Origin: a virus | Taxonomy: Duplodnaviria; Heunggongvirae; Uroviricota; Caudoviricetes | Reading direction: 5' to 3' (one strand) | IMG/VR virus record: IMGVR_UViG_647533161_000006 | Length of the DNA: 19,748 bases | Part shown: positions 1 through 16,714 of the stretch, in pieces | How the letters are laid out: the number at the start of each line of letters is the position of its first letter | Position numbering within the stretch: the stretch's first letter is position 1 | Notes under the pieces: generated by a model | Seen by the model: the letters and a program-made list of their open reading frames with translations, nothing else | What the model was told of the DNA's origin: nothing | Databases searched by the model: none | Program-made: the position numbers and the translations under genes

Positions 1-1143
1 CTATGCTGTTTTGATATCTACGATAACCCAGTCTTTACCACGATCATCATTGTATCGGTCGGTCATTTTTCTGGATTTATGGCCTAACAACTTTTGCGTA
101 TCCAGACCCTGTTCCCGATATAACCGTTCTGACAGAGATCGCTGCTCATGAAATGTGGGCGCAGTTCCTTGCTCCCATTTTATGCCACATTTTTCCCTGG
201 CCTTTTTAAAAGCCGTTGTCAGAGTATTTGCAGAAACCTGGTCTCCTCTGTTTGCTTGAGAGGTAGTGTGACGGTAATGGACCAGATATTTACTAACAAC
301 AGCATCCCTGCACTGAGATATAACTTCACGAAGGGTAATATTCAGAGCATCGCATTTCAGGTTAAGCGGAATAGCAAGTTTTGAACCGGTTTTTTCCTGA
401 GTAATGTGCAACATGTCGTCCCAGATATCAGAGAATTTCAAATTGCAGATATCACCTAAACGTTGTCCAGTAACAAGAGCAAGTAGCATGCCGCATTTTA
501 AATAGGGCTGCCGTCTGCTTACGCTTTCAAATATTGCCTGCCATTCGGGCAGTGACAATCTTTGGCGGTTTACTCGATTTCGCGGTTGTTTTGTTGCCTG
601 CGCTGGGTTAAATCCTGGCGGAACATGTCCTGCGTGTTGTGCTTCTTTGAAGACGTCGATCAACACCATTCTCACGACTTGCGCCATCCTGTTATGACCT
701 TCAGCCTTTACAGCATCAATTATTTCGGCAATATCAAGTGCGGTAATATCCTTGAGGTGTTGCATTCCACAATGCTCACGGAAAAGACGAATGGGTTTGC
801 CTTTTTGCCGATAGGAGTTGGGTCTTAGTTCATTATGTTGCAGCCTGTCCTCCTGGATAGAAATATATTTATCAAGCCATTCTGTCACCGTAATTTCTGA
901 GCGCCTGCCTTTCATTCTTTCCAGACGCTCATTGACGCTTAATATTTGTCGGGTACGTTGTTCAGCAATAATGGTATTTGCTTCAGTAGCAACTTGTTTT
1001 GCTTCATTCTCATCAGTTCCTAAGCTATGAAAACGACCGGATAGTGGATGTTTGTATTGCCAATATACCTTTCCGGTTCGCTTATCTAATTTGCAATATA
1101 AATTGGGTATAGAGATTTTGTGAGATCGGGGTCTAGCAGCCAT
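1..1143 (-). CDS. int: Phage tyrosine integrase, 380 aa
   Basis: Full minus-strand ORF with stop at 1-3 and ATG at 1143-1141. C-terminal HKSRKMTDRY matches the H-x-x-R...Y catalytic signature of tyrosine recombinases. Start overlaps the upstream xis stop, the usual xis-int arrangement. Not lambda Int itself (different length and sequence). Confidence 0.9.
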   Translation of the reverse strand: MAARPRSHKISIPNLYCKLDKRTGKVYWQYKHPLSGRFHSLGTDENEAKQVATEANTIIAEQRTRQILSVNERLERMKGRRSEITVTEWLDKYISIQEDRLQHNELRPNSYRQKGKPIRLFREHCGMQHLKDITALDIAEIIDAVKAEGHNRMAQVVRMVLIDVFKEAQHAGHVPPGFNPAQATKQPRNRVNRQRLSLPEWQAIFESVSRRQPYLKCGMLLALVTGQRLGDICNLKFSDIWDDMLHITQEKTGSKLAIPLNLKCDALNITLREVISQCRDAVVSKYLVHYRHTTSQANRGDQVSANTLTTAFKKAREKCGIKWEQGTAPTFHEQRSLSERLYREQGLDTQKLLGHKSRKMTDRYNDDRGKDWVIVDIKTA

Positions 1144-1369
1144 CAGCGATTATCCGTTGGAGTTTTGGGTTTGCGTTTATTGGGAGTTGCGGTTCTGCAA
1201 GCGTTCCTACAAAACGGGAATTTCGGTCAATCATCCAGTAGCGACCAACTTTTATAGCGGGTGGGGCCATCATTTTCCCTTGCGCGTATTTTTTCAGAAC
1301 TCGCTCACTTGGTGCTAAGTCCCCAAATTCTTCTTTAGCCCAGTCCTGTAAAGTGATTAGTCGAGACAT
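1133..1369 (-). CDS. xis: Excisionase-like small protein, 78 aa
   Basis: Small ORF immediately upstream of and overlapping int. ATG at 1369-1367 is preceded by a strong GAGGAGG Shine-Dalgarno on the coding strand. Function assigned by position and size. Confidence 0.7.
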   Translation of the reverse strand: MSRLITLQDWAKEEFGDLAPSERVLKKYAQGKMMAPPAIKVGRYWMIDRNSRFVGTLAEPQLPINANPKLQRIIADGC

Positions 1370-1508
1370 TTGTCCTCCTCTTAGCTGCTGAGGGAGTTTG
1401 TGACCGATATATCTGACATGATATTAAGCTCATGGCAGGTACATCTCTTGACTGGTCATAGAGATAAATTTAATGCTGAGAAATGCAGTATTGAATTTAT
1501 CAATTTTT

Positions 1509-1748
1509 CTATTTCCTGCGTATGGCACGTAACTTCTTAATGTGTTCTGCCGTTTCGATCTCTTCTGCTATCCGATCTGCATCAGCTTTATTCACAGGTT
1601 CAAAGTCATGATTAAAGCGGAACATGCTGGCGATACATGTTCTGCCTTTTCGGATGTAGTGAACTTTGTTGTAGGTAGAACGCAGGATTTTGCAGGGAGT
1701 GCCGTGGTGGTCGACGTACCAGGTGTTAGGAAAAATGATTCTGAGCAT
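1509..1748 (-). CDS. Hypothetical early-left (b-region) protein, 79 aa
   Basis: ATG-initiated ORF co-oriented with the pL operon; no family recognised from the translation. Confidence 0.45.
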   Translation of the reverse strand: MLRIIFPNTWYVDHHGTPCKILRSTYNKVHYIRKGRTCIASMFRFNHDFEPVNKADADRIAEEIETAEHIKKLRAIRRK

Positions 1749-1795
1749 TTTTACACCTCAGTTGGACGATGTTGAAATTTGCTGCTTTGAGGCCA

Positions 1796-2014
1796 TCACA
1801 ATCCCCATTGTTTGTTCTTAAGTTCGATCTCCTCCTGGCAACTTGCACAAGTCCGACAACCCTGAACGACCAGGCGTCTTCGCTCATCTATCGGATCGCC
1901 ACACTCACAACAATGAGTGGCAGATACAGTCTGGTAGTTCAGACGACGCATTTTTATTGCTGTATTGCGCTGTAATTCTTCGATTTCTGATGCTGAATCA
2001 ATGATGTCTGCCAT
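1796..2014 (-). CDS. TraR/DksA-family C4 zinc-finger protein, 72 aa
   Basis: Translation contains CxxC...(17)...CxxC (CCECGDPIDERRRLVVQGCRTCASC), typical of TraR/DksA-type zinc fingers that bind the RNA polymerase secondary channel. Size and position match TraR-like genes of lambdoid phages. Confidence 0.75.
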   Translation of the reverse strand: MADIIDSASEIEELQRNTAIKMRRLNYQTVSATHCCECGDPIDERRRLVVQGCRTCASCQEEIELKNKQWGL

Positions 2015-2063
2015 CTTCCATTAATCCCTGAATTGTTGGTTAATACGCTTGAGGGTGAATGCG

Positions 2064-2091
2064 AATAATAAAAAAGGAGCCTGTAGCTCCC
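2064..2091 (-). terminator. Intrinsic terminator-like hairpin on the minus strand
   Basis: Minus strand reads GGAGCTACAGGCTCC (5-bp stem) followed by TTTTTTATTATT; lies between the 93-aa ORF and the TraR-like gene. Confidence 0.45.
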
Positions 2092-2112
2092 TGATGATTT
2101 TGCTTTTCATGT

Positions 2113-2394
2113 TCATCGCTCCTTAAAGACGCCGTTTAACATGCCGATCGCCAGGCTTAAATGAGTCGGTGTGAATCCCATCAGCGTTACCGTTTCGCGG
2201 TGCTTCTTCAGTACGCTACGGCAAATGTCATCGACGTTTTTATCCGGAAACTGCTGTCTGGCTTTTTTGATTTCAGAGTTAGCTTGACGGGCAATGCTGC
2301 GAAGGGCGTTTTTCTGCTGAGGTGTCACTGAACAAGCCCCATGCCGGAAAGCATAAGCACACAGAATATGAAGCCCGCCGCCAGAAAAATGCAT
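2113..2394 (-). CDS. Hypothetical early-left protein (about 93 aa from ATG at 2394; ORF extends to a TTG at 2412)
   Basis: Open frame co-oriented with neighbours; start uncertain (no clear SD for either candidate); no recognised domain. Confidence 0.4.
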   Translation of the reverse strand: MHFSGGGLHILCAYAFRHGACSVTPQQKNALRSIARQANSEIKKARQQFPDKNVDDICRSVLKKHRETVTLMGFTPTHLSLAIGMLNGVFKER

Positions 2395-2404
2395 TCTGTT
2401 GTTG

Positions 2405-2596
2405 TCATGCAAGCTCTCTCTCGTTTGCCTCTGCTTTCGCCGCCATCATTTCCAGCTTTTGTGAAAGGGATGCGGCTAACGTATGAAATTCTTCGTCTGT
2501 TTCTGCTGGTATTGGCACAAACCTGACTCCAATTTGAGCAAGGCTATGTGCCATCTCAATGCTCGTTCTTAACTCAACAGGAGATGCTTTGTGCAT
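2405..2596 (-). CDS. Small early-left protein, 63 aa (lambda orf63-like position)
   Basis: ATG at 2596-2594 with a GAGGGG SD upstream; position and size match the small orfs that lie downstream of exo in lambda. Confidence 0.55.
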   Translation of the reverse strand: MHKASPVELRTSIEMAHSLAQIGVRFVPIPAETDEEFHTLAASLSQKLEMMAAKAEANERELA

Positions 2597-2751
2597 ACAG
2601 CCCCTCGTTTATTATTTATCTCCTCAGCCAGCCGCTGGGCTTTCAGTGGATTTTGGATAACAGAAAGGCCGGGAAATACCCAGCCTCGCTTTGTAACGGA
2701 GTAGACGAAAGTGATCGCGCCTACCCGGATATTATCGTGAGGATGCGTCAT
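2569..2751 (-). CDS. Small early-left protein, 60 aa (lambda orf60a-like)
   Basis: ATG at 2751-2749 overlaps the exo stop (2748-2750) in an ATGA arrangement, as for orf60a in lambda; the ORF-track entry extends 2 codons upstream. Confidence 0.55.
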
Positions 2752-3357
2752 CGCCATTGCTCCCCAAATACAAAACCAATTTCAGCCAGTGCCTCGTCCA
2801 TTTTTTCGATGAACTCCGGCACCATCTCGTCAAAACTCGCCATGTACTTTTCATCCCGCTCAACCACGACATAATGCAGTCCTTCACGCTTCATACGCGG
2901 GTCATAGTTGGCAAAGTACCAGGCATCTTTTCGTGTCACCCACATGCTGTACTGCACCTGGGCCATGTAAGCCGACTTTATGGCCTCGAAACCACCGAGC
3001 CGGAACTTCATGAAATCCCGGGAGGTAAACGGGCATTTCAGCTCAAGGCCATTGCCGTCACTGCATAAACCATCGGGAGAGCAGGCGGTGCGCATACTTT
3101 CGTCGCGATAGATGATCGGGGATTCAGTAACATTCACGCCGGAAGTGAATTCAAACAGAGTTCTGGCGTCGTTCTCGTACTGTTTTCCCCAGGCCAGCGC
3201 CTTAGCATTAACTTCCGGAGCCACACCGGTGCAAACCTCAGCCAGCAGGGTGTGGAAGTAGGACATTTTCATGTCAGGCCACTTCTTTCCTGAGCGGGGC
3301 TTTGCTATCACGTTGTGAACTTGTGAAGCGGTGATGACGCCGAGCCGTAATTTGTGC
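2748..3357 (-). CDS. exo: Lambda exonuclease (Red alpha), C-terminal about 202 codons; 5' end lost in the N run
   Basis: Translation (…[41 protein letters not shown]…GFVFGEQWR) is near-identical to lambda Exo as I recall it. Stop at 2748-2750. Confidence 0.92.
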
Positions 3358-3926
3358 NNNNNNNNNNNNNNNNNNNNNNNNNNNNNNNNNNNNNNNNNNN
3401 NNNNNNNNNNNNNNNNNNNNNNNNNNNNNNNNNNNNNNNNNNNNNNNNNNNNNNNNNNNNNNNNNNNNNNNNNNNNNNNNNNNNNNNNNNNNNNNNNNNN
3501 NNNNNNNNNNNNNNNNNNNNNNNNNNNNNNNNNNNNNNNNNNNNNNNNNNNNNNNNNNNNNNNNNNNNNNNNNNNNNNNNNNNNNNNNNNNNNNNNNNNN
3601 NNNNNNNNNNNNNNNNNNNNNNNNNNNNNNNNNNNNNNNNNNNNNNNNNNNNNNNNNNNNNNNNNNNNNNNNNNNNNNNNNNNNNNNNNNNNNNNNNNNN
3701 NNNNNNNNNNNNNNNNNNNNNNNNNNNNNNNNNNNNNNNNNNNNNNNNNNNNNNNNNNNNNNNNNNNNNNNNNNNNNNNNNNNNNNNNNNNNNNNNNNNN
3801 NNNNNNNNNNNNNNNNNNNNNNNNNNNNNNNNNNNNNNNNNNNNNNNNNNNNNNNNNNNNNNNNNNNNNNNNNNNNNNNNNNNNNNNNNNNNNNNNNNNN
3901 NNNNNNNNNNNNNNNNNNNNNNNNNN
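3358..3926. other. Run of 569 N (assembly gap or masked sequence)
   Basis: Directly visible in the sequence; interrupts the 5' end of exo and most of bet. Confidence 1.
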
Positions 3927-4039
3927 CACCCTTTAAATGCCGTCTGGCGAAGAGTGGTGATCAGTTCCTGTGGGTCGACAGAATCCATGCCGACACGTTC
4001 AGCCAGCTTCCCTGCCAGCGTTGCGAGTGCTGTACTCAT
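3927..4039 (-). CDS. bet: Lambda Bet (Red beta) ssDNA-annealing protein, N-terminal 37 codons only; remainder in the N run
   Basis: ATG at 4039-4037; MSTALATLAGKLAERVGMDSVDPQELITTLRQTAFKG matches the lambda Bet N-terminus. Confidence 0.88.
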
Positions 4040-4044
4040 CCGTT

Positions 4045-4461
4045 TTATACCTCTGAATCAATATCAACCTGGTGGTGAGCAATGGTTTCAACCATGTACC
4101 GGATGTGTTCTGCCATGCGCTCCTGAAACTCAACATCGTCATCAAACGCACGGGTAATGGCTTTTTTGCTGGCCCCGTGGCGTTGCAAATGATCGATGCA
4201 TAGCGATTCAAACAGGTGCTGGGGCAGGCCTTTTTCCATGTCGTCTGCCAGTTCTGCCTCTTTCTCTTCACGGGCGATCTGCTGGTAGTGACGCGCCCAG
4301 CTCTGAGCCTCAAGACGATCCTGAATGTAATAAGCGTTCATGGCTGAACTCCTGAAATAGCTGTGAAAATATCGCCCGCGAAATGCCGGGCTGATTAGGA
4401 AAACAGGAAAGGGGGTTAGTGAATGCTTTTGCTTGATCTCAGTTTCAGTATTAATATCCAT
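4045..4461 (-). CDS. gam: Gam (RecBCD inhibitor), 138 aa
   Basis: Translation [61 protein letters not shown]… is near-identical to lambda Gam, including the internal Met used for the short GamS form. Confidence 0.93.
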
Positions 4462-4559
4462 TTTTTATAAGCGTCGACGGCCTCACGAAACATCTTTTCA
4501 TCGCCAATAAAAGTGGCGATAGTGAATTTAGTCTGGATAGCCATAAGTGTTTGATCCAT
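4416..4559 (-). CDS. kil: Kil (host cell-division inhibitor), 47 aa
   Basis: Internal ATG at 4559-4557 gives [47 protein letters not shown], matching lambda Kil; overlaps the gam start as in lambda. Confidence 0.8.
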
Positions 4560-4692
4560 TTTTTGGGACTCCTGGCTGATTAAGTATGTCGATAAGGCGT
4601 TTCCATCCGTCACGTAATTTACGGGTGATTCGTTCAAGTAAAGATTCGGAAGGGCAGCCAGCAACAGGCCACCCTGCAATGGCATATTGCAT
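4528..4692 (-). CDS. cIII: CIII (FtsH/HflB inhibitor protecting CII), 54 aa
   Basis: ATG at 4692-4690 and an ending …NTYGYPD* were translated by hand (MQYAIAG…); overlaps kil in another frame as in lambda. Not in the ORF track because it is under 60 aa. Confidence 0.8.
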   Translation of the reverse strand: MQYAIAGWPVAGCPSESLLERITRKLRDGWKRLIDILNQPGVPKNGSNTYGYPD

Positions 4693-4764
4693 GGTGTGCT
4701 CCTTATTTATACATAACGAAAAACGCCTCGAGTGAAGCGTTATTGGTATGCGGTAACGCCGCGC

Positions 4765-5133
4765 TCAGGCGGCTTTGATAGTCATATCATCTGAATCAAA
4801 TATTCCTGATGTATCGATATCGGTAATTCTTATTCCTTCGCTACCATCCATTGGAGGCCATCCTTCCTGACCATTTCCATCATTCCAGTCGAACTCACAC
4901 ACAACACCATATGCATTTAAGTCGCTTGAAATTGCTATAAGCAGAGCATGTTGCGCCAGCATGATTAATACAGCATTTAATACAGAGCCGTGTTTATTGA
5001 GTCGGTATTCAGAGTCTGACCAGAAATTATTAATCTGGTGAAGTTTTTCCTCTGTCATTACGTCATGGTCGATTTCAATTTCTATTGATGCTTTCCAGTC
5101 GTAATCAATGATGTATTTTTTGATGTTTGACAT
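4765..5133 (-). CDS. ea10: Ea10 early protein, 122 aa
   Basis: Translation matches lambda Ea10 (MSNIKKYIIDYDWKASIEIEIDHDVMTEEKLHQINNFWSDSEY…). Confidence 0.8.
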   Translation of the reverse strand: MSNIKKYIIDYDWKASIEIEIDHDVMTEEKLHQINNFWSDSEYRLNKHGSVLNAVLIMLAQHALLIAISSDLNAYGVVCEFDWNDGNGQEGWPPMDGSEGIRITDIDTSGIFDSDDMTIKAA

Positions 5134-5150
5134 CTATTCATATCCTCACA

Positions 5151-5180
5151 GATAAAAAATCGCCCTCACATTGGAGGGCA
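5151..5180 (-). terminator. Intrinsic terminator on the minus strand (tL-type)
   Basis: Minus strand reads GCCCTC-CAATGT-GAGGGC followed by GATTTTTTATC; sits upstream of ea10 within the leftward operon, so it would be read through under N antitermination. Confidence 0.5.
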
Positions 5181-5393
5181 AAGAAGATTTCCAATAATCA
5201 GAACAAGTCGGCTCCTGTTTAGTTACGAGCGACATTGCTCAGTGTATTCACTCGTTGGAATGAATACACAGTGCAGTGTTTATTAGTATGCCTGTCTTTT
5301 AACCACATCAGGCTCGGTGGTTCTCGTGTACCCCTACAGCGAGAAATCGGATAAACTCTATTCACCCCTACAGAGAGCAAAAGAGAAACGCCG

Positions 5394-5975
5394 ATGAACA
5401 ACTCATGGTGGCAGGAACTAATGCATTTTTTCCTGCAAGGAATGACACTTAAACAGTTGATTCATATGCTAATCATCCTGATCATATTGATTATTGTTAT
5501 GCCTGTAAGCGTAAAAGAATGGATAAACCTGCATAATCCAGAAATCCTTCCTCATTACTGGATGTATTACATCCTGTTGTTTTGCGTTAGCTATGTGCTT
5601 AACGGCGTTGTTAATTCCGCTTATCACGCTGTGACTGTAAGAATTGAGATATTCGCTGCTCAGAAGCGCAAATCTAAAGAAGAGAAATACGTGCAAGATT
5701 TGTTTGATTCGTTAACTCTTGGAGAAAGAGCGTATTTGGCATTCGCTGTAGCCGCTAATAACCAGCTAAAGACAGAAAAGGGAAGCCCTGAAGCAATCTC
5801 ATTGCTCGAAAAAGGGCTTCTTATTCGGGTACCTTCTGCTACTGGATATCCTGAAATCGACCGTTTTGTTATCCCGGAACGCTATAGAAATGAGTGCTAC
5901 ATTAGGTTTGCTGGGAAGAAAGACAGTCTTATGGATGAACTTATCGCTCAGGATAAGCATGGCAAAAACAAGTAA
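5394..5975 (+). CDS. sieB: Superinfection exclusion protein B (SieB)-like inner-membrane protein, 193 aa as drawn
   Basis: Plus-strand ORF convergent with N, with a strongly hydrophobic N-terminal region (LIHMLIILIILIIVMPVSV…YWMYYILLFCVSYVLNGVV); recognised as SieB-like from memory of lambda SieB. The true start may be an internal Met. Confidence 0.7.
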   Translation: MNNSWWQELMHFFLQGMTLKQLIHMLIILIILIIVMPVSVKEWINLHNPEILPHYWMYYILLFCVSYVLNGVVNSAYHAVTVRIEIFAAQKRKSKEEKYVQDLFDSLTLGERAYLAFAVAANNQLKTEKGSPEAISLLEKGLLIRVPSATGYPEIDRFVIPERYRNECYIRFAGKKDSLMDELIAQDKHGKNK

Positions 5976-5991
5976 TTAGCAAATGAATTTA

Positions 5992-6300
5992 TCATCTCGC
6001 CGTCAGTTGTTTTGATTTCCGGTAGCCTGCCGCGTAAATAGCTACGTTTGGCAGGCAAACACTTCCACTGCATTCATCTACTTTCTTGCAGCGAAGGCTT
6101 CCGAGTGATATTGCTTTTTCAGAAAGGCTTAACCGCTTTCTCGGGTCTTCCTGAACAGGTTCCTCACTGTCTGTGCCGAAGATCGAATCGATGATGTTGC
6201 AGATGGAATCACGCTCGATGGCCAGCTTTCTGCGCCGCTCATGACGGCGAGTTTTGGCATTTCCTGCAAATGTTGATTTTCCGTACACGATTACCGTCAT
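5992..6300 (-). CDS. N: N-type transcription antiterminator, P22 gene 24-like, 102 aa from ATG at 6300
   Basis: Arginine-rich motif GNAKTRRHERRRKLAIER near the N-terminus (MTVIVYGKSTFAGNAKTRRHERRRKLAIERD…) matches the P22-type N ARM. The ORF-track entry starts 28 codons upstream at a non-ATG start. Confidence 0.82.
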   Translation of the reverse strand: MTVIVYGKSTFAGNAKTRRHERRRKLAIERDSICNIIDSIFGTDSEEPVQEDPRKRLSLSEKAISLGSLRCKKVDECSGSVCLPNVAIYAAGYRKSKQLTAR

Positions 6301-6418
6301 GATGTTTTCCTCATGTGAAATGGCTTTGGTGGTGATGCGCCAGATGCTGATCTTCTGGTTGCTGTCGTTACTGCTGCAATTCACATCACCCCAAACCCAT
6401 CTCGTTTGGTATCTGTTC

Positions 6419-6453
6419 GCGCTTTGTCAGCGCATCATCGAAGTTAAAGAGCC
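6419..6453 (-). promoter_or_regulatory. nutL: nutL (boxA plus boxB), P22 type
   Basis: Minus strand reads GGCTCTTTAAC (boxA-like) then GCGCTGACAAAGCGC (boxB hairpin, from 6419-6433), the P22-type nutL boxB, about 120 nt upstream of the N start. Confidence 0.72.
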
Positions 6454-6489
6454 TGCCAATCTGTTCCGTTTGGCTGCCAGCGTCCTGCT

Positions 6490-6545
6490 GATGGCGATTA
6501 TAATGAACCAATAGTTCGATATTATCAAGAACTATAAGTACGAAT
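6490..6545 (-). promoter_or_regulatory. Putative pL promoter and oL operator region
   Basis: Minus strand carries TATAAT (plus 6497-6502) and a TTGATA -35-like hexamer (plus 6523-6528) at a non-ideal spacing. Partial dyads (GAACTATAAGTAC, GAACCAATAGTTC) share the AGTAC/ACT..AGT motif seen in the cI-cro operator region. Exact operators not resolved. Confidence 0.35.
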
Positions 6546-6710
6546 TGTTTGTGGTTCATTAACTTAATGAGATATGTTTTTGATATGTAAAGGAATTTAT
6601 TTTTGTAAAGATTGAAGATTGGTCAGTAGGAGAGAAAGAATTGTTTGCTGGCGTGTTAGTTCGTGGGTTAGCACATGTGCGGATGTTAAATAAGGTAGAC
6701 GATCGTGAGG

Positions 6711-6736
6711 AAAAGAAAAACCGGCGCTGAGGCCGG
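6711..6736 (-). terminator. Intrinsic terminator closing the cI/gene-X transcription unit
   Basis: Minus strand reads CCGGCC-TCAGCG-CCGG (GC-rich hairpin) followed by TTTTTCTTTT, a few nt after the gene-X stop codon (6743-6745) and before the putative pL. Confidence 0.55.
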
Positions 6737-6742
6737 GTATAA

Positions 6743-7642
6743 TTATTTGATTATTTCTTTTATAAAGACTTCTTTCGGTTGGTATTTTTTATCTGATGAT
6801 TTGAGCTGGTACGTTATTGTTATATCAGCACGTACAGAAAATTTACCTGCAAAATCTGATGGGTTTACGTTGGGGCCAAGAACCATATTTACTCTTCGAT
6901 CTATTAATCCAGGGATAACAGCAGCCCAACCTTTCTCTGGATTGTCGAGGTCTAATGCACGGATTTCAACATCAACATCAAAATGATCCTGAGTATATGA
7001 CTCTGGTGTGAAGACAACTTCAGTTGGGGCTTTTTTAATGGTTTCAGCGGGAATGGTCACTGTACCACCCCCTGTACCTATGACCATCGTAGATCCTTCG
7101 TCTGCCCTAGCTGGGGCAAGCGTCTTAATGGAACTTTTGGCAAGAGTCTTCTTATTGGTTACCGTGCTTTCTATGATTGCTTGAAGACGGTCAGGTGAAA
7201 TATTAGCCTCACCGGCACCAATATTGATGATTGTATTGTTATTTGCTTCAAAGTGGGAGGTGTTGCTTGGAGCCATAGCCTTAGTTGCTAGAACTAAGCC
7301 ATATCCAACCAGACCAATAACAACAGCACCAACGAGAGCGTTTCTCATTTTCCCATTTCCGATCTTTGCATGAGCGCCAGCAAGAAACTTGTCCATTTCT
7401 TCTTGGCTACCAAAGAGGAGTTTAATAACAATATCTTCATAAAGGCTTCCTGCTTCTAATCGCGCAACATGCACCGATATATCAAGGATATTAGCCCCTG
7501 TCAGTTCCTGCAAAACACCTTCTGATTGTTTTGCGATGGCCTCCCACCCTTGAAGGGAGGTAATCACATCTTTGATGCTTACAGGTTCTTTAGTTGAATA
7601 ATATATGTTTTCGGTAAAGGTTAAAGATAATTCTTGGGACAT
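6743..7642 (-). CDS. Uncharacterised single-pass membrane protein, 299 aa, in the rexAB-equivalent slot
   Basis: Long ATG-initiated ORF (ATG 7642-7640) with a GAGGG SD upstream, co-oriented with and downstream of cI. One hydrophobic segment (NALVGAVVIGLVGYGLVLATKAMA) separates an N-terminal ~100-aa domain from a Gly/Thr-rich ~175-aa C-terminal domain. Visibly AT-rich compared with flanking phage genes; no family recognised. Confidence 0.7.
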   Translation of the reverse strand: MSQELSLTFTENIYYSTKEPVSIKDVITSLQGWEAIAKQSEGVLQELTGANILDISVHVARLEAGSLYEDIVIKLLFGSQEEMDKFLAGAHAKIGNGKMRNALVGAVVIGLVGYGLVLATKAMAPSNTSHFEANNNTIINIGAGEANISPDRLQAIIESTVTNKKTLAKSSIKTLAPARADEGSTMVIGTGGGTVTIPAETIKKAPTEVVFTPESYTQDHFDVDVEIRALDLDNPEKGWAAVIPGLIDRRVNMVLGPNVNPSDFAGKFSVRADITITYQLKSSDKKYQPKEVFIKEIIK

Positions 7643-7771
7643 CCGAGCCCTCGCTGTTTCTTTCGATTTGCTGTGTTAAGCTAATATTTTAATATCCATG
7701 TTTCTGTTTGCTTGCAGTGTGTTTCTCACCACCATCCAAACGTACTGGTTACTAGCTATGTGATGATGAAG

Positions 7772-8479
7772 TCATGAACTTTTCAGCCATTCCCTGGCCT
7801 CGATGTCATCTAGGTGGCGAGATTGCTTCAGAATACCAGCTACATACTCCACCTTTGCTACTTGATGATAAGGCAACGTTATTGGCCTGTGGTCTTGGTT
7901 GATGCTTGTAAATTGGTATTCTCCGTCTCTGTCATAGCCAAGAACCTTGATCATGTTGTGCCCTTCAATGGTTCTGACAAACACCTCATCACCTGGGAAT
8001 ACTTTGGTGTTAGGCTCAATGAGTACATATTCTCCTGATTTTATTCTGGGCCACATGCTGTCTCCTTTTACACGAAGACCAAAGGCATCTGGATCATCGC
8101 TATAAATCTTGAGCCACCCATCGCGCTCTTCGGTCATCTCGATGGCACCATCAACACCAAGAATTGCCTCACCAACCACGCGCACTAACCCTTTTTTTAA
8201 TTTGCCAACAATTGAAAAAGTATCTTCATCATTCGCTCCATTTAACGAAGTGCCGTGCTGAAGCCAAACAACATCAACGTTTAGAAATTTCGCAAGCGCA
8301 TTCATTTTTTCCTGGCGTGGTAAAGACTCAGCATTAAACCATTTGCTAACGCCTTTGGACGAAAGAGAAAGGGCACGGGCTATGGCCATTCCCCTACCAT
8401 GTTCATCAAGACCAGCTTCTTTACAGGCTTGCGCTAGCCGCTGGGCGAATTCTTTGCGCACTTTTTCATTCTGAACCAT
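7772..8479 (-). CDS. cI: CI-like prophage repressor (N-terminal HTH, C-terminal S24 LexA-like autopeptidase), 235 aa
   Basis: C-terminal domain contains GDSMWP (Ser nucleophile motif of S24 peptidases) and a downstream Lys; N-terminal region is HTH-like. Divergent from cro across a short operator region. Not lambda CI or P22 C2 by sequence. Confidence 0.85.
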   Translation of the reverse strand: MVQNEKVRKEFAQRLAQACKEAGLDEHGRGMAIARALSLSSKGVSKWFNAESLPRQEKMNALAKFLNVDVVWLQHGTSLNGANDEDTFSIVGKLKKGLVRVVGEAILGVDGAIEMTEERDGWLKIYSDDPDAFGLRVKGDSMWPRIKSGEYVLIEPNTKVFPGDEVFVRTIEGHNMIKVLGYDRDGEYQFTSINQDHRPITLPYHQVAKVEYVAGILKQSRHLDDIEAREWLKSS

Positions 8480-8557
8480 GAGTACGATACTAAAGCACTT
8501 GCAAAAACTTTCAGTTCAACCATAATGCGTACTGAAAGTACGAAAAAGGACATTCCT
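8480..8557. promoter_or_regulatory. oR / pR / pRM divergent control region
   Basis: 78-bp cI-cro intergenic with a plus-strand -35 TTGCAA (8499-8504), 16-bp spacer, -10 CATAAT (8521-8526). Dyads CGTACTGAAAGTACG (8528-8542) and AACTTTCAGTT (8506-8516) overlap the promoter as candidate operators. pRM not resolved. Confidence 0.5.
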
Positions 8558-8785
8558 ATGCAAAATCTTGATGAGCCGATTAAAGGTGTCGGCATCCCTG
8601 AAGTTGCGAAGGCTTGTGGAGTTAGCGAAAGGGCTGTCTATAAGTGGCTCAAAAACGGCTTCCTCCCTAAGACTGAGTTTTTTGGGAAAACGAAATACGC
8701 ATCAAAAATCGAAGAGATTTCTGGTGGCAAATATCAAGCAAGCGAAATGCTTGAAATAAGCAAAAAGAACCTTCTGGCAGCATAA
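8558..8785 (+). CDS. cro: Cro-like HTH regulator, 75 aa from ATG 8558
   Basis: First rightward gene, opposite cI; AAAAAGGA SD precedes ATG 8558; HTH-like segment GIPEVAKACGVSERAVYKWLKNG. The ORF-track start at 8525 lies inside the operator region and is less likely. Confidence 0.7.
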   Translation: MQNLDEPIKGVGIPEVAKACGVSERAVYKWLKNGFLPKTEFFGKTKYASKIEEISGGKYQASEMLEISKKNLLAA

Positions 8786-8792
8786 GTAACAC

Positions 8793-8827
8793 CGCTCTTT
8801 ATCAATCTGCACCGCCGACAACGCGGT
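8793..8827 (+). promoter_or_regulatory. nutR: nutR (boxA CGCTCTTTA plus boxB ACCGCCGACAACGCGGT), P22 type
   Basis: boxA at 8793-8801 and boxB hairpin at 8811-8827, just downstream of the cro stop; boxB matches the P22-type nutR. Confidence 0.7.
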
Positions 8828-8891
8828 AACTAATTAAGAACTCATCGAAAGATGCGTATTAGTGATTATTTACCTATGGAAATAGTAAGAA

Positions 8892-9191
8892 ATGGAACAA
8901 ACAAATTACAGCAAACTATCACAGCGCGACGTTGATCGCGCAGAAACAGATTTACTTATCAACCTGTCAACGCTTACTCAGCGCGGTCTGGCAAAGATGA
9001 TTGGCTGTCATGAATCGAAGATAAGCAGAACAGACTGGAGGTTTATAGCTTCGGTCTTGTGTGCTTTTGGCATGGCATCAGACATCAGTCCGATTAGCAG
9101 AGCTTTTAAGTATGCGCTTGATGAAATCACCAATAAAAAACGCCCGGTGTGCAAGACCGAGCGTTCTGAACAAATCCAGATGGAGTTCTGA
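8892..9191 (+). CDS. cII: CII transcriptional activator (lysogeny establishment), 99 aa
   Basis: C-terminus …TNKKRPVCKTERSEQIQMEF matches the lambda CII C-terminus; the N-terminal half is divergent (mosaic). Confidence 0.8.
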   Translation: MEQTNYSKLSQRDVDRAETDLLINLSTLTQRGLAKMIGCHESKISRTDWRFIASVLCAFGMASDISPISRAFKYALDEITNKKRPVCKTERSEQIQMEF

Positions 9192-13987: not shown

Positions 13988-14512
13988 TTATTGTTTGACC
14001 CATAATAGTTCATTGACATTGAATCCCAATTTTTGAGCAGTACGCACATAGTCTGCTTTTACATTATCTGGAATAGTTGGAGTCCGTGCCAGAATCCATA
14101 GGTATTCTCTGTTCGGACCACTGACAAGAGCATACTTATACTCATCATCCAGTTTGATTACATTATAGCCACCATAGAAGGGGCCAAAAAACGAAACCTT
14201 CAACGCTGCAGTTGTATTATCTCCTGTAAAGTATGCTTTACCTTCGCTCTCGCTCCATTTGTTTTTCGTTGGGTCATATCCACGATTAAGTACACTAATC
14301 CCTCCGTCGTTCCGTTTCCCATAAGTGGCGCTGACCTGTTCCAGACCACGTTCAAATCGGTTCTCAAGCCGAGCTATTTCATACCATTTTCCGAGGTAGC
14401 GGTTGGTGTCAAAATTTGTAATCGGCTGCACACCTTTAGGTGGTGTCGGGGCCTTACATGCTATCAGAGTGAAAGAGAGTGCAATGCCAGTCAACACAGG
14501 CCATAACTTCAT
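13988..14512 (-). CDS. Blc-like outer-membrane lipocalin lipoprotein, 174 aa (moron)
   Basis: Signal peptide with lipobox (…FTLIAC) then lipocalin-type sequence (NFDTNRYLGKWYEIARLENRFERGLEQV…KVSFFGPFYGGYNVI…YLWILARTP) closely resembling bacterial lipocalin Blc; opposite strand to the late operon. Confidence 0.85.
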   Translation of the reverse strand: MKLWPVLTGIALSFTLIACKAPTPPKGVQPITNFDTNRYLGKWYEIARLENRFERGLEQVSATYGKRNDGGISVLNRGYDPTKNKWSESEGKAYFTGDNTTAALKVSFFGPFYGGYNVIKLDDEYKYALVSGPNREYLWILARTPTIPDNVKADYVRTAQKLGFNVNELLWVKQ

Positions 14513-14704
14513 AATATATCCTGTACTTTTGATAGTTGAGAGTAAGTATTAAAGATAGATGATTACTACCGATCACCTAAAGAACTTTCCTACTATATTA
14601 GGAATAGTCCATAACAAAAAAATTGTCAGTGATGACGGCAGAAAGGCAGTTTAGGTCGTGTACTACACTGTTAACCTGTTAATGAATTAGTCAAGGGGTA
14701 GGCA

Positions 14705-15664
14705 ATGATAAAAAAACCTGTCGTTGGGATCAGTGGTTGTTTGGCCGGTTCTTCTGTCCGTTTTGATGGTGGTCACAAAAGAGCTAGCTTTTTAATGGAC
14801 AAATTACTGGAATGGGTAACATTCAAACCAGTATGTCCGGAAATGGCTATAGGGCTTCCAGTTCCGCGTCCTGCTCTACGTCTTGTTCGCTCGGCGCAAG
14901 GAAATATACGGATGTGTTTCAGCCACGACCAGAATGAGGATGTTACAGAGAAAATGACAGAGTTTAGTCGTTCTTATCTTGACAAATTAAAGGATGTATC
15001 GGGATTTGTGGTTTGTGCAAAATCTCCTAGCTGTGGTATGGAACGCGTGCGTGTATATGATGAAAATGGTAATCGTGGTCGTAAAGATGGAGTGGGACTA
15101 TTTACGAGCACGTTGATGGAAAGGTTTTCCTGGCTACCGGTTGAAGAGGATGGGCGACTACATGATCCAGTGCTTCGTGAAAACTTTGTTGAAAGAGTAT
15201 TTGCTTTACATGAGCTCAATCATCTTTATAAAGCGAAATTATCAAGAAGGGAATTATTAGCTTTTCATAGCCGTTATAAGCTTCAGTTGTTGGCGCATAG
15301 CCAGGCCGGTTATAAAGAGATGGGGCCATTTGTGGCTGCAATACATGAGTGGGCAGACCTTGAATCATACTTTGAGGTGTATCGTGAGAAGCTGATGGCG
15401 ATTCTCAGAAAACCTGCATCACGTAAAAATCACACGAATGTGCTGATGCATATACAGGGATATTTTAGTAACTGCTTAAATACACGTCAGCGTAAAGAGT
15501 TGAGCGATGTTATACTTAACTATCGAGCTGGCACGCTACCTCTTCTTGCGCCATTAACTTTGCTGAAGCATTACTTGGCAGAGTATCCTGATGATTATTT
15601 GCTTATACAGAATTACTTCCACCCCTATCCTGATGAACTGGCTCTAAGACTCTTGGTGAACTAG
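14705..15664 (+). CDS. DUF523/DUF1722-like two-domain protein (TudS/YbgA-like), 319 aa (moron)
   Basis: ATG 14705 with AAGGGGTAGG SD. N-terminal half has Cys-containing motifs (GISGCLAGSSVRFDGG, PVCPE, CAKSPSCGME) reminiscent of DUF523/TudS-type Fe-S proteins; C-terminal half resembles DUF1722. Family call is from memory, not a search. Confidence 0.6.
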   Translation: MIKKPVVGISGCLAGSSVRFDGGHKRASFLMDKLLEWVTFKPVCPEMAIGLPVPRPALRLVRSAQGNIRMCFSHDQNEDVTEKMTEFSRSYLDKLKDVSGFVVCAKSPSCGMERVRVYDENGNRGRKDGVGLFTSTLMERFSWLPVEEDGRLHDPVLRENFVERVFALHELNHLYKAKLSRRELLAFHSRYKLQLLAHSQAGYKEMGPFVAAIHEWADLESYFEVYREKLMAILRKPASRKNHTNVLMHIQGYFSNCLNTRQRKELSDVILNYRAGTLPLLAPLTLLKHYLAEYPDDYLLIQNYFHPYPDELALRLLVN

Positions 15665-15982
15665 GCGTTTGGAATGCACCAACAAGATGATTTTCTCCTT
15701 AGAGAATGTTTACAATCGTAAAAACTTCACTATGATATCTATAGTTGTACAGTTTGTAAAAAAATTCGGTTCATGCTTAAGGTAATGTTAATATGTTAAT
15801 TAATGATTAATAATCAAGCAAGCCAAAAATAGTTCTGTTTAATCTAGTATTACATAAATATTTTAAAGAAAATATCAAAGTTCATGATGATATAATGAGA
15901 TTTTTCTCATTGAAAATATGGCAATTTTAATATTTCCACCTATACTTACTTAACTCAAATCTAATTATGTCAGGTGGATGGT

Positions 15983-16714
15983 ATGCCATGCATATGTTCT
16001 ATCATTTTGGTTTTGAACTCGTTTGATATCCGGCTTGGTAAAGAAAAAATCTCTCTAAAAAAAGGAAGTGTTGTTGCTATAGAATACAATTTAAAAGTTT
16101 TCTTTTCTTCAAATAAAGATAATATAATGATCGTGGATATTGAAGAGAAAACAGTTAATGACTTCTTTAAAAACAATACACTCTCACCTTTTTCTGTAAG
16201 AAGATTTTATTCAGCATACTTGATAGTAAACTGTACAGACTATTCATTGTTAAAGAACTTGATAGGTTGCTTGAATTGTGATGGTGAAACTACGGCTGTA
16301 GTTAAAAATTCAATATTATTTGCATGTCTTGCTATTTTATCCTCGGAAAAAATGTTTCAGAGTTTTTTGTTTGGGTGTCTTAATAGTTTAGGAAGCAAAG
16401 TTAAGGCTATTATTCACTCGGACATATCTGCAGCATGGAGACTTTGTGATATTTCTTCAAGACTATGTCTGAGTGAAAGTTTGTTAAAAAGAAAACTAAA
16501 ACACGAAGGCTTATCATTTAGCAAATTAATTCTTGAAGAACGAATGGTGATGGCTGAAAGGTTATTAAGCTACAATTTCTATCCTGTTGGGAAAGTTGCT
16601 AAAATATGTGGTTATGAAAGCGCGTCATATTTTATAAGTGTTTTCAGAAGATATTTTGGTGTTCCCCCCCATGAATATTCATCAAGATTTTTTTTAGAAA
16701 AAGGCAAGATGTAA
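15983..16714 (+). CDS. AraC/XylS-family transcriptional regulator, about 243 aa (moron; very AT-rich)
   Basis: C-terminal AraC-type HTH signature (…GKVAKICGYESASYFISVFRRYFGVPPHEY…). In-frame ATG 15983 with AGGTGG SD 7 nt upstream (the ORF-track entry starts at GTG 15974). Preceded by ~300 bp of extremely AT-rich DNA. Confidence 0.75.
   Translation: MPCICSIILVLNSFDIRLGKEKISLKKGSVVAIEYNLKVFFSSNKDNIMIVDIEEKTVNDFFKNNTLSPFSVRRFYSAYLIVNCTDYSLLKNLIGCLNCDGETTAVVKNSILFACLAILSSEKMFQSFLFGCLNSLGSKVKAIIHSDISAAWRLCDISSRLCLSESLLKRKLKHEGLSFSKLILEERMVMAERLLSYNFYPVGKVAKICGYESASYFISVFRRYFGVPPHEYSSRFFLEKGKM

Follow-up and report, generated by a model that had tools for sequence, protein, structure and literature searches.

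The window analysed here is a stretch of 19,748 nucleotides (nt) of DNA from a virus of the Caudoviricetes (IMG/VR record IMGVR_UViG_647533161_000006), and corresponds to a lambdoid Escherichia coli prophage. On its minus strand, the cI repressor gene is followed by an open reading frame (ORF) for a protein of 299 amino acids (aa), a terminator, a pL-like promoter, nutL and the N gene, in that order, with cro, cII, O and P on the opposite strand running rightwards from 8525. The region studied is 100% identical to that of eleven Lambda_ev/1H12 phages (genus Jouyvirus), and a near-intact copy of the prophage is held by ~97 complete E. coli genomes. Our subject is the 299-aa ORF, which is a genuine gene and belongs to an accessory cassette (a 'moron') that is complete in itself and occupies the cI-to-pL hotspot of this prophage. 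The cassette moves among prophages, preferentially to a position directly behind the repressor gene, of whatever type that repressor may be, and its product is a good candidate for a new phage-exclusion protein.

The locus behind cI

The cI gene and the 299-aa ORF are co-oriented and separated by a spacer of 129 nt (coordinates in Table 1), and the ORF listing and the domains of cI confirm the arrangement described in an initial annotation of this DNA, which had likened the position to that of rexAB in lambda; the gene does fill the interval between cI and pL/N. Its ATG is preceded, at 5 nt, by a Shine-Dalgarno (SD) sequence GAGGG, and its stop codon is followed by an intrinsic-terminator-like hairpin with a T-tract. 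Taken alone, the hairpin (6736..6711) has a modest advantage over shuffled sequence (z = -1.9). That it is a terminator, as first proposed, is supported by comparison: it is kept together with the gene in diverged copies, and of 56 distinct 3' contexts in the family, 28 have a terminator-like site at most 90 nt past the stop vs 5.2% of random windows, the sequence of the hairpin varying among lineages and its position remaining constant. The pL-like promoter and nutL, which had been placed right after the terminator, are both present, although they lie roughly 180-290 nt beyond it. The boxA- and boxB-like sequences upstream of N are what we take to be the nut site, on the strength of the lambda nut consensus. 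Beside the pL-like promoter is an operator-like half-site that matches part of the OR palindrome, and a search for repeats inside the region returned this match and nothing else.

No terminator-like site was found between cI and the 299-aa gene in a sequence scan. A consensus scan of the 129-nt spacer detected no sigma-70-like promoter (by eye, there is one TAAAAT with a poor -35), so that independent expression from this spacer, which had been suggested because of the strong SD, is unsupported by the sequence. The AT-richness noted earlier is real but modest overall (GC content 0.412 for the ORF vs 0.453 for cI), the compositional gap being clearest at third codon positions (0.327 vs 0.415 for cI and 0.485 for N).

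A mobile cassette in an exchangeable slot

Copies of the gene at 64-97% DNA or protein identity sit behind different repressors in other prophages. The homology shared with these copies extends from ~40-60 nt 5' of the ATG (window 7651-7704) to past the T-tract (6708-6716), and these limits argue that the mobile unit consists of the leader with its SD, the ORF and the terminator. No partner gene is present in the E. coli cassette.

The interval between cI and N is described as a mosaic hotspot, which holds rexAB in lambda and, in BTP1, bstA, reported to share the repressor promoter (PMC8585504), and the immunity regions of Gifsy prophages hold the single-gene defence GiPD474 and remAIN (PMC12724215). 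That the slot carries variable cargo, as the initial annotation had noted for lambdoid phages in general, is directly seen when the window is compared with Shiga toxin (Stx) phages with a ~98% identical cI region. By blastn, homology with the locus of Stx2a phage Stx2_EH0505 is found only at 8900..7744 and 6609..6083, and the Stx2 phages are 97.8% identical to the window on the cI/cro side and 93% on the pL/N side. In between, they carry genes for a 113-aa DUF3024 protein (PADLOC candidate PDC-S43, E = 7e-42) and a 285-aa NYN-domain nuclease. In Stx2_EH0505 itself these two genes (locus 2750..4096) look like an uncharacterised two-gene candidate defence pair, and an IS3-family element and a second copy of the 3' part of cI (locus 233..517) lie beyond N in this phage.

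A large family linked to prophage repressors

The ratio of nonsynonymous to synonymous substitution rates (dN/dS) of the 299-aa gene is 0.02-0.10 against four diverged copies, which together with the size of the family excludes a spurious ORF. A profile search of 1.84 billion representatives recovered 661 family members (clusters at 50% identity), 549 of them at E <= 1e-10 and nearly all ~300 aa long and aligned end to end. A word-indexed search gave 56 clusters of homologs, with identity down to 29%, from Salmonella, Klebsiella, Citrobacter, Pectobacterium, Yersinia, Serratia, Edwardsiella and Accumulibacter, annotated as 'hypothetical protein' in every source. Among complete E. coli genomes, 150 of 5426 (~3%, clinical isolates among them) hold the gene, always at >= 99% identity. 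All the hosts seen (Proteobacteria, Desulfuromonadales and one cyanobacterium) are diderms, which fits with a periplasm-facing role, and in the sampled loci the gene is always on phages or satellites and never a core chromosomal gene. The protein, which the initial annotation had called unrecognised, is indeed without functional annotation but is not unclassified, since PHROG 4506 covers it from end to end (E = 1e-170, 567 bits, residues 1-299 to profile positions 1-300 of 300). As this PHROG is annotated as 'unknown function', membership names the family and explains nothing.

Genomic contexts were surveyed at 66 loci (41 from IMG/VR and 25 from genomes), which yielded 51 distinct contexts with enough upstream sequence. 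The family gene is preferentially the last in a prophage repressor transcription unit: a co-oriented repressor with a helix-turn-helix (HTH) and/or S24 domain lies upstream in 28-29 of the 51, directly adjacent in 21 of those (gap 33-204 nt, some only 33-62 nt), and S24 repressors make up 19 of the 45 nearest co-oriented upstream genes. The upstream repressors of other contexts share <= 33% identity with the cI of the window. In Pectobacterium Rac-like prophages the gene follows a short CI-type repressor; in Pseudomonas phages D14C, U7 and U9 a homolog at 24% identity follows the repressor with one extra gene in between; and in the Mu-like Leptolyngbya phage Lsp-JY19 a full-length member of 332 aa (E = 2.4e-76) is encoded behind an HTH gene, on the arm that runs divergently from the transposase operon. 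That the gene keeps its place next to unrelated repressors in phages of E. coli, of Pseudomonas and of a cyanobacterium is stronger support than was available to the initial annotation. The absence of a terminator-like site between cI and the gene, together with the 33-62 nt that separate some homologs from the repressor stop codon, suggests expression in the lysogen by read-through. Transcription from the repressor promoters (pRM, and pRE during establishment) would end at 6736..6711, so that a silent prophage would produce the protein constitutively.

Outside the repressor-linked contexts, the gene again occupies accessory positions of mobile elements. In Serratia fonticola, a 59%-identical member comes right after the primase gene (Zn_Ribbon_Prim/Toprim_3/DUF927) of an AlpA-containing P4/PICI-like element (locus 141..6909), so the family also rides phage satellites; two large genes (847 and 598 aa) without Pfam annotation come next in this element. 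Others are beside integrases, holins or Q, after a Dam methylase gene or after a DUF2514 lysis gene. The extra gene of the three Pseudomonas phages, always between cI and the homolog (locus 4450..4923 in D14C and U9), encodes a hypothetical protein of 157 aa for which neither Pfam nor PADLOC gave a match, and may be a partner or part of an independent stack of morons; downstream of the homolog are genes for a 180-aa hypothetical protein and a YafO-like toxin.

Predicted architecture of the protein

An AlphaFold2 (AF2) model built from a 42-sequence alignment (pLDDT 87, pTM 0.70) has an N-terminal alpha/beta domain (aa 1-94), a helix at aa 101-123, more helices to ~aa 179 and then a beta-rich C-terminal domain (aa 186-297). 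The first 45 aa have no signal peptide-like hydrophobicity, and a single transmembrane (TM) helix, with basic residues on its N side, stands out in the KD19 profile. Family-wide, exactly one hydrophobic segment, at ~residue 102, is found in 163 of 186 full-length members, and lysine plus arginine residues in the 15 residues flanking it average 3.15 on the N side and 1.13 on the C side (higher on the N side in 158 members, lower in 9). One TM segment, a positive-inside bias and an N-terminal domain of ~100 aa without a signal peptide make an N-in/C-out topology a clear prediction across the family, and the domain layout and topology first read from the E. coli protein alone thus find support well beyond it. 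The product would be a conserved bitopic inner-membrane protein, whose motif ANNNTIINIGAG and conserved C-terminal part of ~175 aa are predicted to face the periplasm.

The protein is conserved to much the same degree in its cytoplasmic and its periplasmic part (192 sequences). Near-invariant residues are L30, G65, S66 and F77 in the N-terminal domain and P206, R228, A229, D231, D233, G238, W239 and R250 in the C-terminal domain, and in the juxtamembrane motif A133, N136, I139, G142, A143 and G144 are invariant (42 sequences).

Searches of Pfam, NCBIfam and PADLOC with the 299-aa protein returned nothing meaningful, the only hits, such as DUF1206 (E = 0.007, below the gathering score), being sub-threshold ones driven by the TM segment, which were rejected. 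In PADLOC-DB v2.0.0 (5027 models), no family matched the window protein at E <= 1 and none matched the Pseudomonas phage homolog at E <= 0.01. A sequence-profile search of the PDB gave a best E of 0.4 and was rejected, as were the M16-peptidase-like matches returned by Foldseek against the PDB (TM-score < 0.2). Against BFVD, Foldseek found two confident but uninformative matches, both uncharacterised (A0A8S5T657 and a DUF6575 protein). Three candidates from the literature, the Fc02 exclusion genes (PMC9936078), GiPD474 (PMC12724215) and HepS (PMC13043305), are unrelated proteins. Homology to a structural, lysis or housekeeping family, which the initial annotation had singled out as contrary to its proposal, was found by none of the sequence, profile and fold searches.

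Table 1. Features of the cI-N region and of the 299-aa protein, with window coordinates
Feature	Position	Strand	Basis or remark
CDS (coding sequence) of 299-aa protein	6743..7642	-	ATG start; stop codon 6743..6745; ORF listing
N-terminal alpha/beta domain, predicted cytoplasmic, aa 1-95	7358..7642	-	AF2 beta-alpha-beta-beta-alpha, pLDDT 77-94
Single TM helix (predicted), aa 102-123	7274..7339	-	KD19 score 2.24 (aa 102-120); next best elsewhere 0.93
Juxtamembrane motif ANNNTIINIGAG, aa 133-144	7211..7246	-	most conserved block of the family (192 sequences)
C-terminal beta-rich domain, predicted periplasmic, aa 186-299	6746..7087	-	
cI repressor, HTH_3 + Peptidase_S24	7772..8479	-	Pfam S24 E = 3.5e-16, HTH_3 E = 1.2e-5; PHROG 4, transcriptional repressor
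Cassette 5' leader, including SD GAGGG (7652..7648)	7643..7704	-	limits of DNA homology; SD read from sequence
Intrinsic-terminator-like hairpin CCGGC-CTCAGC-GCCGG, then T-tract TTTTTCTTTT	6711..6736	-	starts 6 nt past the stop codon
Exchangeable slot	6610..7743	-	differs from Stx2 phages sharing cI/cro and N/pL flanks
pL-like promoter TTGATA-17-CATTAT	6500..6528	-	promoter scan
Operator-like half-site beside pL-like promoter	6531..6544		repeat matches 8531-8544 inside OR palindrome CGTACTTTCAGTACG
nutL-like boxA GCTCTTTAAC	6452..6443	-	read from sequence, upstream of N
nutL-like boxB hairpin GCGCT-GACAA-AGCGC	6433..6419	-	read from sequence, upstream of N
N gene	5992..6300	-	PF25694, E = 1e-40

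Other features of the window

The prophage has a second exclusion-type gene, since a SieB-family superinfection-exclusion gene (5394..5975, plus strand; PF14163 E = 3e-25, PHROG 1301) is flanked by N and cIII, runs opposite to the pL operon and is <1 kb from the 299-aa gene. An Rfam Lambda_thermo element (the cIII thermoregulator; 4647..4705, minus strand, 88.5 bits, E = 9e-21) overlaps the start of the lambda-type cIII ORF (4528..4692). A masked run of 569 N (3358..3926) falls in the exo/bet recombination region, and the ORFs called across it are artefacts. Downstream of Q, where Stx phages have stx, is a cargo block (13988..16714) with genes for a Blc lipocalin (13988..14512, minus strand), a YbgA-like DUF523/DUF1722 protein (14705..15664, plus strand) and a 246-aa hypothetical protein (15974..16714, plus strand; very AT-rich, GC 0.27-0.33). 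Beyond the part represented in the window, the identical free phage 1H12 has genes for a SitA-like Mn/Fe ABC transporter by its integrase (locus 1..1207), which is unusual host-physiology cargo for a lambdoid phage.

Weighing the possible functions

We infer that the product of the gene benefits the lysogen irrespective of repressor or phage type. The best fit is protection of the lysogen from superinfecting phages, that is, a general anti-phage role, to which we would assign a probability of about 0.6, because the hosts are universal, the association with phages and satellites is exclusive and the known content of the slot is of this kind. How such protection would work is a more tentative matter. 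The mechanism that we favour, with some hesitation, is superinfection exclusion at the envelope by a block of genome entry, because most of the conserved protein is predicted to be periplasmic, the top motif would sit on the periplasmic surface of the inner membrane, neither a toxin nor an enzyme domain is recognised, and there is a precedent in P22 SieA and HK97 gp15, which are prophage-encoded inner-membrane proteins blocking DNA entry (PMC10883804). The periplasmic domain and the Asn-rich juxtamembrane motif would hinder the genome-delivery conduit of the incoming phage, or the inner-membrane component used by that conduit, keeping phage DNA out of the cytoplasm and leaving adsorption and cell survival unaffected, and the role of the conserved cytoplasmic domain may be in anchoring, oligomerisation or regulation.

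Several points weigh against this interpretation. As for the protein itself, (i) the known entry blockers are small and have no large conserved cytoplasmic domain, (ii) the near-invariant residues on both sides of the membrane look more like trans-membrane coupling, and (iii) the invariant polar cluster of the C-terminal domain (R228, D231, D233, W239 and R250) points to a conserved ligand or host partner, unlike the variable surface expected of an arms race with phage proteins. As for its genetics, (i) linkage to the repressor speaks only for expression in lysogeny, and any lysogenic-conversion function would share this position, (ii) the host can dispense with the gene, as one clinical isolate at least, E. 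coli EECO1006 (NZ_CP090319.1), has an IS1B insertion (locus 1501..3177) that splits it into annotated fragments of 217 and 65 aa, (iii) the surveyed loci over-represent closer relatives because they were retrieved with family motifs, and (iv) the occasional PADLOC-positive neighbours (PD-Lambda-3_B, PD-Lambda-5_B, Aga_HEPN, DrmC, DUF499, HmaC and methyltransferases) occur in a minority of contexts, a count without a background rate. Finally, no homology to a known defence or exclusion protein was found in Pfam, NCBIfam, PADLOC or PHROGs, and a full-text literature search turned up no paper on the family and none naming PHROG 4506.

The main rival to an entry block, which we consider rather unlikely, is an abortive-infection (Abi) sensor/effector. 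Such a protein would sense infection through its periplasmic domain (tail tip, ejection proteins or envelope damage) or its cytoplasmic domain (a phage protein), and would then oligomerise via the TM helix and the Asn-rich motif so that the inner membrane is depolarised or permeabilised and the cell dies before progeny is made, as with RexB or other membrane Abi effectors. The slot is shared with the Abi systems rexAB and bstA (PMC8585504), the conserved domains on either side of one helix suggest signal coupling, the polar juxtamembrane motif, which is the most conserved element, could line an oligomeric pore, and a membrane-anchored single-gene prophage Abi protein is reported in Staphylococcus (PMC10127798). 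Yet the protein has one TM helix only and no recognisable toxin or pore domain, its conserved mass is mostly periplasmic, an uncommon arrangement for proteins that sense phage replication inside the cell, and the E. coli cassette is without a companion sensor gene.

A lysogenic-conversion or host-fitness factor apart from defence, acting for example in envelope stress tolerance, transport, surface properties or colonisation, is an explanation that we find clearly improbable. It would account for a repressor-operon position, which proves lysogeny expression only, and for the invariant periplasmic polar cluster, which suggests a conserved small-molecule or host-protein ligand; moreover, the same prophage type has a Bor-like protein, the Blc lipocalin and the SitA transporter (phage 1H12). 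However, the hosts (gut Enterobacterales, plant pathogens, Pseudomonas, nitrifiers, Accumulibacter and a cyanobacterium) are ecologically unrelated, which makes one niche-specific benefit unlikely whereas phage pressure is universal, the gene is phage- or satellite-borne in all sampled loci rather than a core chromosomal gene, and the alternative occupants of the slot are defence-type genes.

The chances are slimmer that the protein serves the phage's own life cycle, either as a trans-membrane sensor feeding into the lysis-lysogeny switch (repressor stability or induction) or by conditioning the membrane for later lysis or DNA entry. Linkage to the repressor is tight (often 33-130 nt) in many unrelated immunity regions, and a bitopic build with a conserved cytoplasmic domain may resemble that of trans-membrane signalling proteins such as anti-sigma factors or ToxR-like proteins. 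Against this, the cassette occurs with S24, short HTH-only and Mu-like regulators (<= 33% identity), as well as in repressor-free contexts (after a satellite primase, by integrases or after a lysis cassette), which makes a specific repressor partner unlikely, and phages with an identical cI manage without the gene, as does the natural prophage disrupted by IS1.

Hardly any weight can be given to a virion, morphogenesis or lysis protein, or to a spurious ORF: in an Accumulibacter Mu-like prophage the gene is directly upstream of Mu-like protease and capsid genes, and one source labels a homolog 'Baseplate protein J-like', but the gene is on the regulator-side arm, divergent from the early operon, both there and in the cyanophage, so that a structural reading of the Accumulibacter locus was rejected, the label is unsupported by a Pfam scan of the window protein or by genomic context, no Pfam or PHROG structural or lysis match was found, the E. 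coli gene is in the immunity region, on the repressor strand and with its own terminator, and dN/dS and family size exclude an artefact.

A last reading, which cuts across those above and is speculative enough for us to think it improbable too, is that the family represents a previously unrecognised class of single-protein trans-envelope sensors in prophage repressor operons. The periplasmic site formed by the polar cluster would respond to some early, conserved sign of phage attack at the envelope, or to the state of the envelope or of a ligand, and the signal would pass via the TM helix to the cytoplasmic domain, giving an abortive or protective response, or an input to the prophage's decision to stay or leave.

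To return to superinfection protection, the initial observation is confirmed, and its interpretation as a candidate exclusion or defence gene is partly supported, being strengthened by the comparative evidence but unproven.

Significance

The interval between cI and N of lambdoid prophages has already given RexAB, BstA and other defences, and the cassette is another recurrent, uncharacterised occupant. A defence candidate behind cI will not surprise the specialist; the interest comes from (i) the size and breadth of the family (661 clusters, ~3% of complete E. coli genomes, Salmonella, Klebsiella, Pseudomonas phages and a cyanophage), (ii) synteny across phyla, (iii) a confidently predicted structure without informative relatives, in a protein that the defence-system databases searched do not contain, and (iv) the ease with which a compact unit of ~1 kb (leader, ORF and terminator) can be tested. 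If the protein does exclude phages, it would represent a new envelope-level mechanism, with a bearing on the host range of therapeutic phages in E. coli and Pseudomonas lysogens and on prophage competition. If it is a trans-envelope sensor, it would reveal a new logic, common to hosts from E. coli to cyanobacteria, by which phages are warded off or induction is controlled, and if its function is something other than exclusion, it would still be a conserved lysogeny-expressed membrane function.

Comparison with known systems

The closest positional counterpart is RexA/RexB of lambda, which also lies between cI and pL/N, co-oriented with cI and with a terminator before pL, is likewise presumed to be expressed in lysogens from the repressor promoters, and also involves a membrane protein. 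However, Rex consists of two proteins, with RexB polytopic, whereas here there is a single ORF for a protein with one predicted TM helix and large soluble domains on both sides, which matches no Rex family in Pfam at E <= 1 and nothing in PADLOC. BstA of Salmonella prophage BTP1 (PMC8585504) is similar: its one gene directly follows cI and has a Rho-independent terminator to itself, it is ~300 aa long, and its synteny with repressors is conserved across diverse Gram-negative prophages, as is that of the 299-aa family. It differs in localising to phage DNA replication sites and acting by abortive infection (PMC8585504), and so is not an integral membrane protein; no homology was detected (no PADLOC family, and no DNA-binding domain in Pfam for the 299-aa protein).

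With P22 SieA and HK97 gp15 (PMC10883804), the 299-aa protein shares a single-gene make-up without an enzymatic domain, presumably expression from the prophage and, as a prediction, the status of an integral inner-membrane protein of prophage origin, all inspected loci being phage, prophage or satellite. SieA, by contrast, has 162-164 aa and three predicted TM segments, is encoded elsewhere in the genome and has no sequence similarity to the 299-aa protein, which, unlike the product of the nearby gene at 5394..5975, has no match to the SieB profile (PF14163) either. GiPD474 of Gifsy-1 (PMC12724215) is also encoded by a single gene in the immunity region, by the repressor/cro/cII module, and is widespread in Enterobacteriaceae prophages, but, as a soluble protein of P-loop ATPase-like type, it is related to the 299-aa protein neither in sequence nor in architecture. 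The DUF3024 (PDC-S43) and NYN pair of Stx2 phages occupies exactly the same slot, behind a ~98% identical cI, and is thus an allelic alternative cargo, although it is a two-gene, soluble, nuclease-based candidate system that is unrelated in sequence.

In position and genomic logic, the cassette therefore belongs with the rexAB/bstA class of repressor-operon cargo, while being a member of none of those families. Its genomic logic is familiar and the family had already been delineated, without a function, as PHROG 4506; what is new is the protein family as an occupant of this slot and its architecture.

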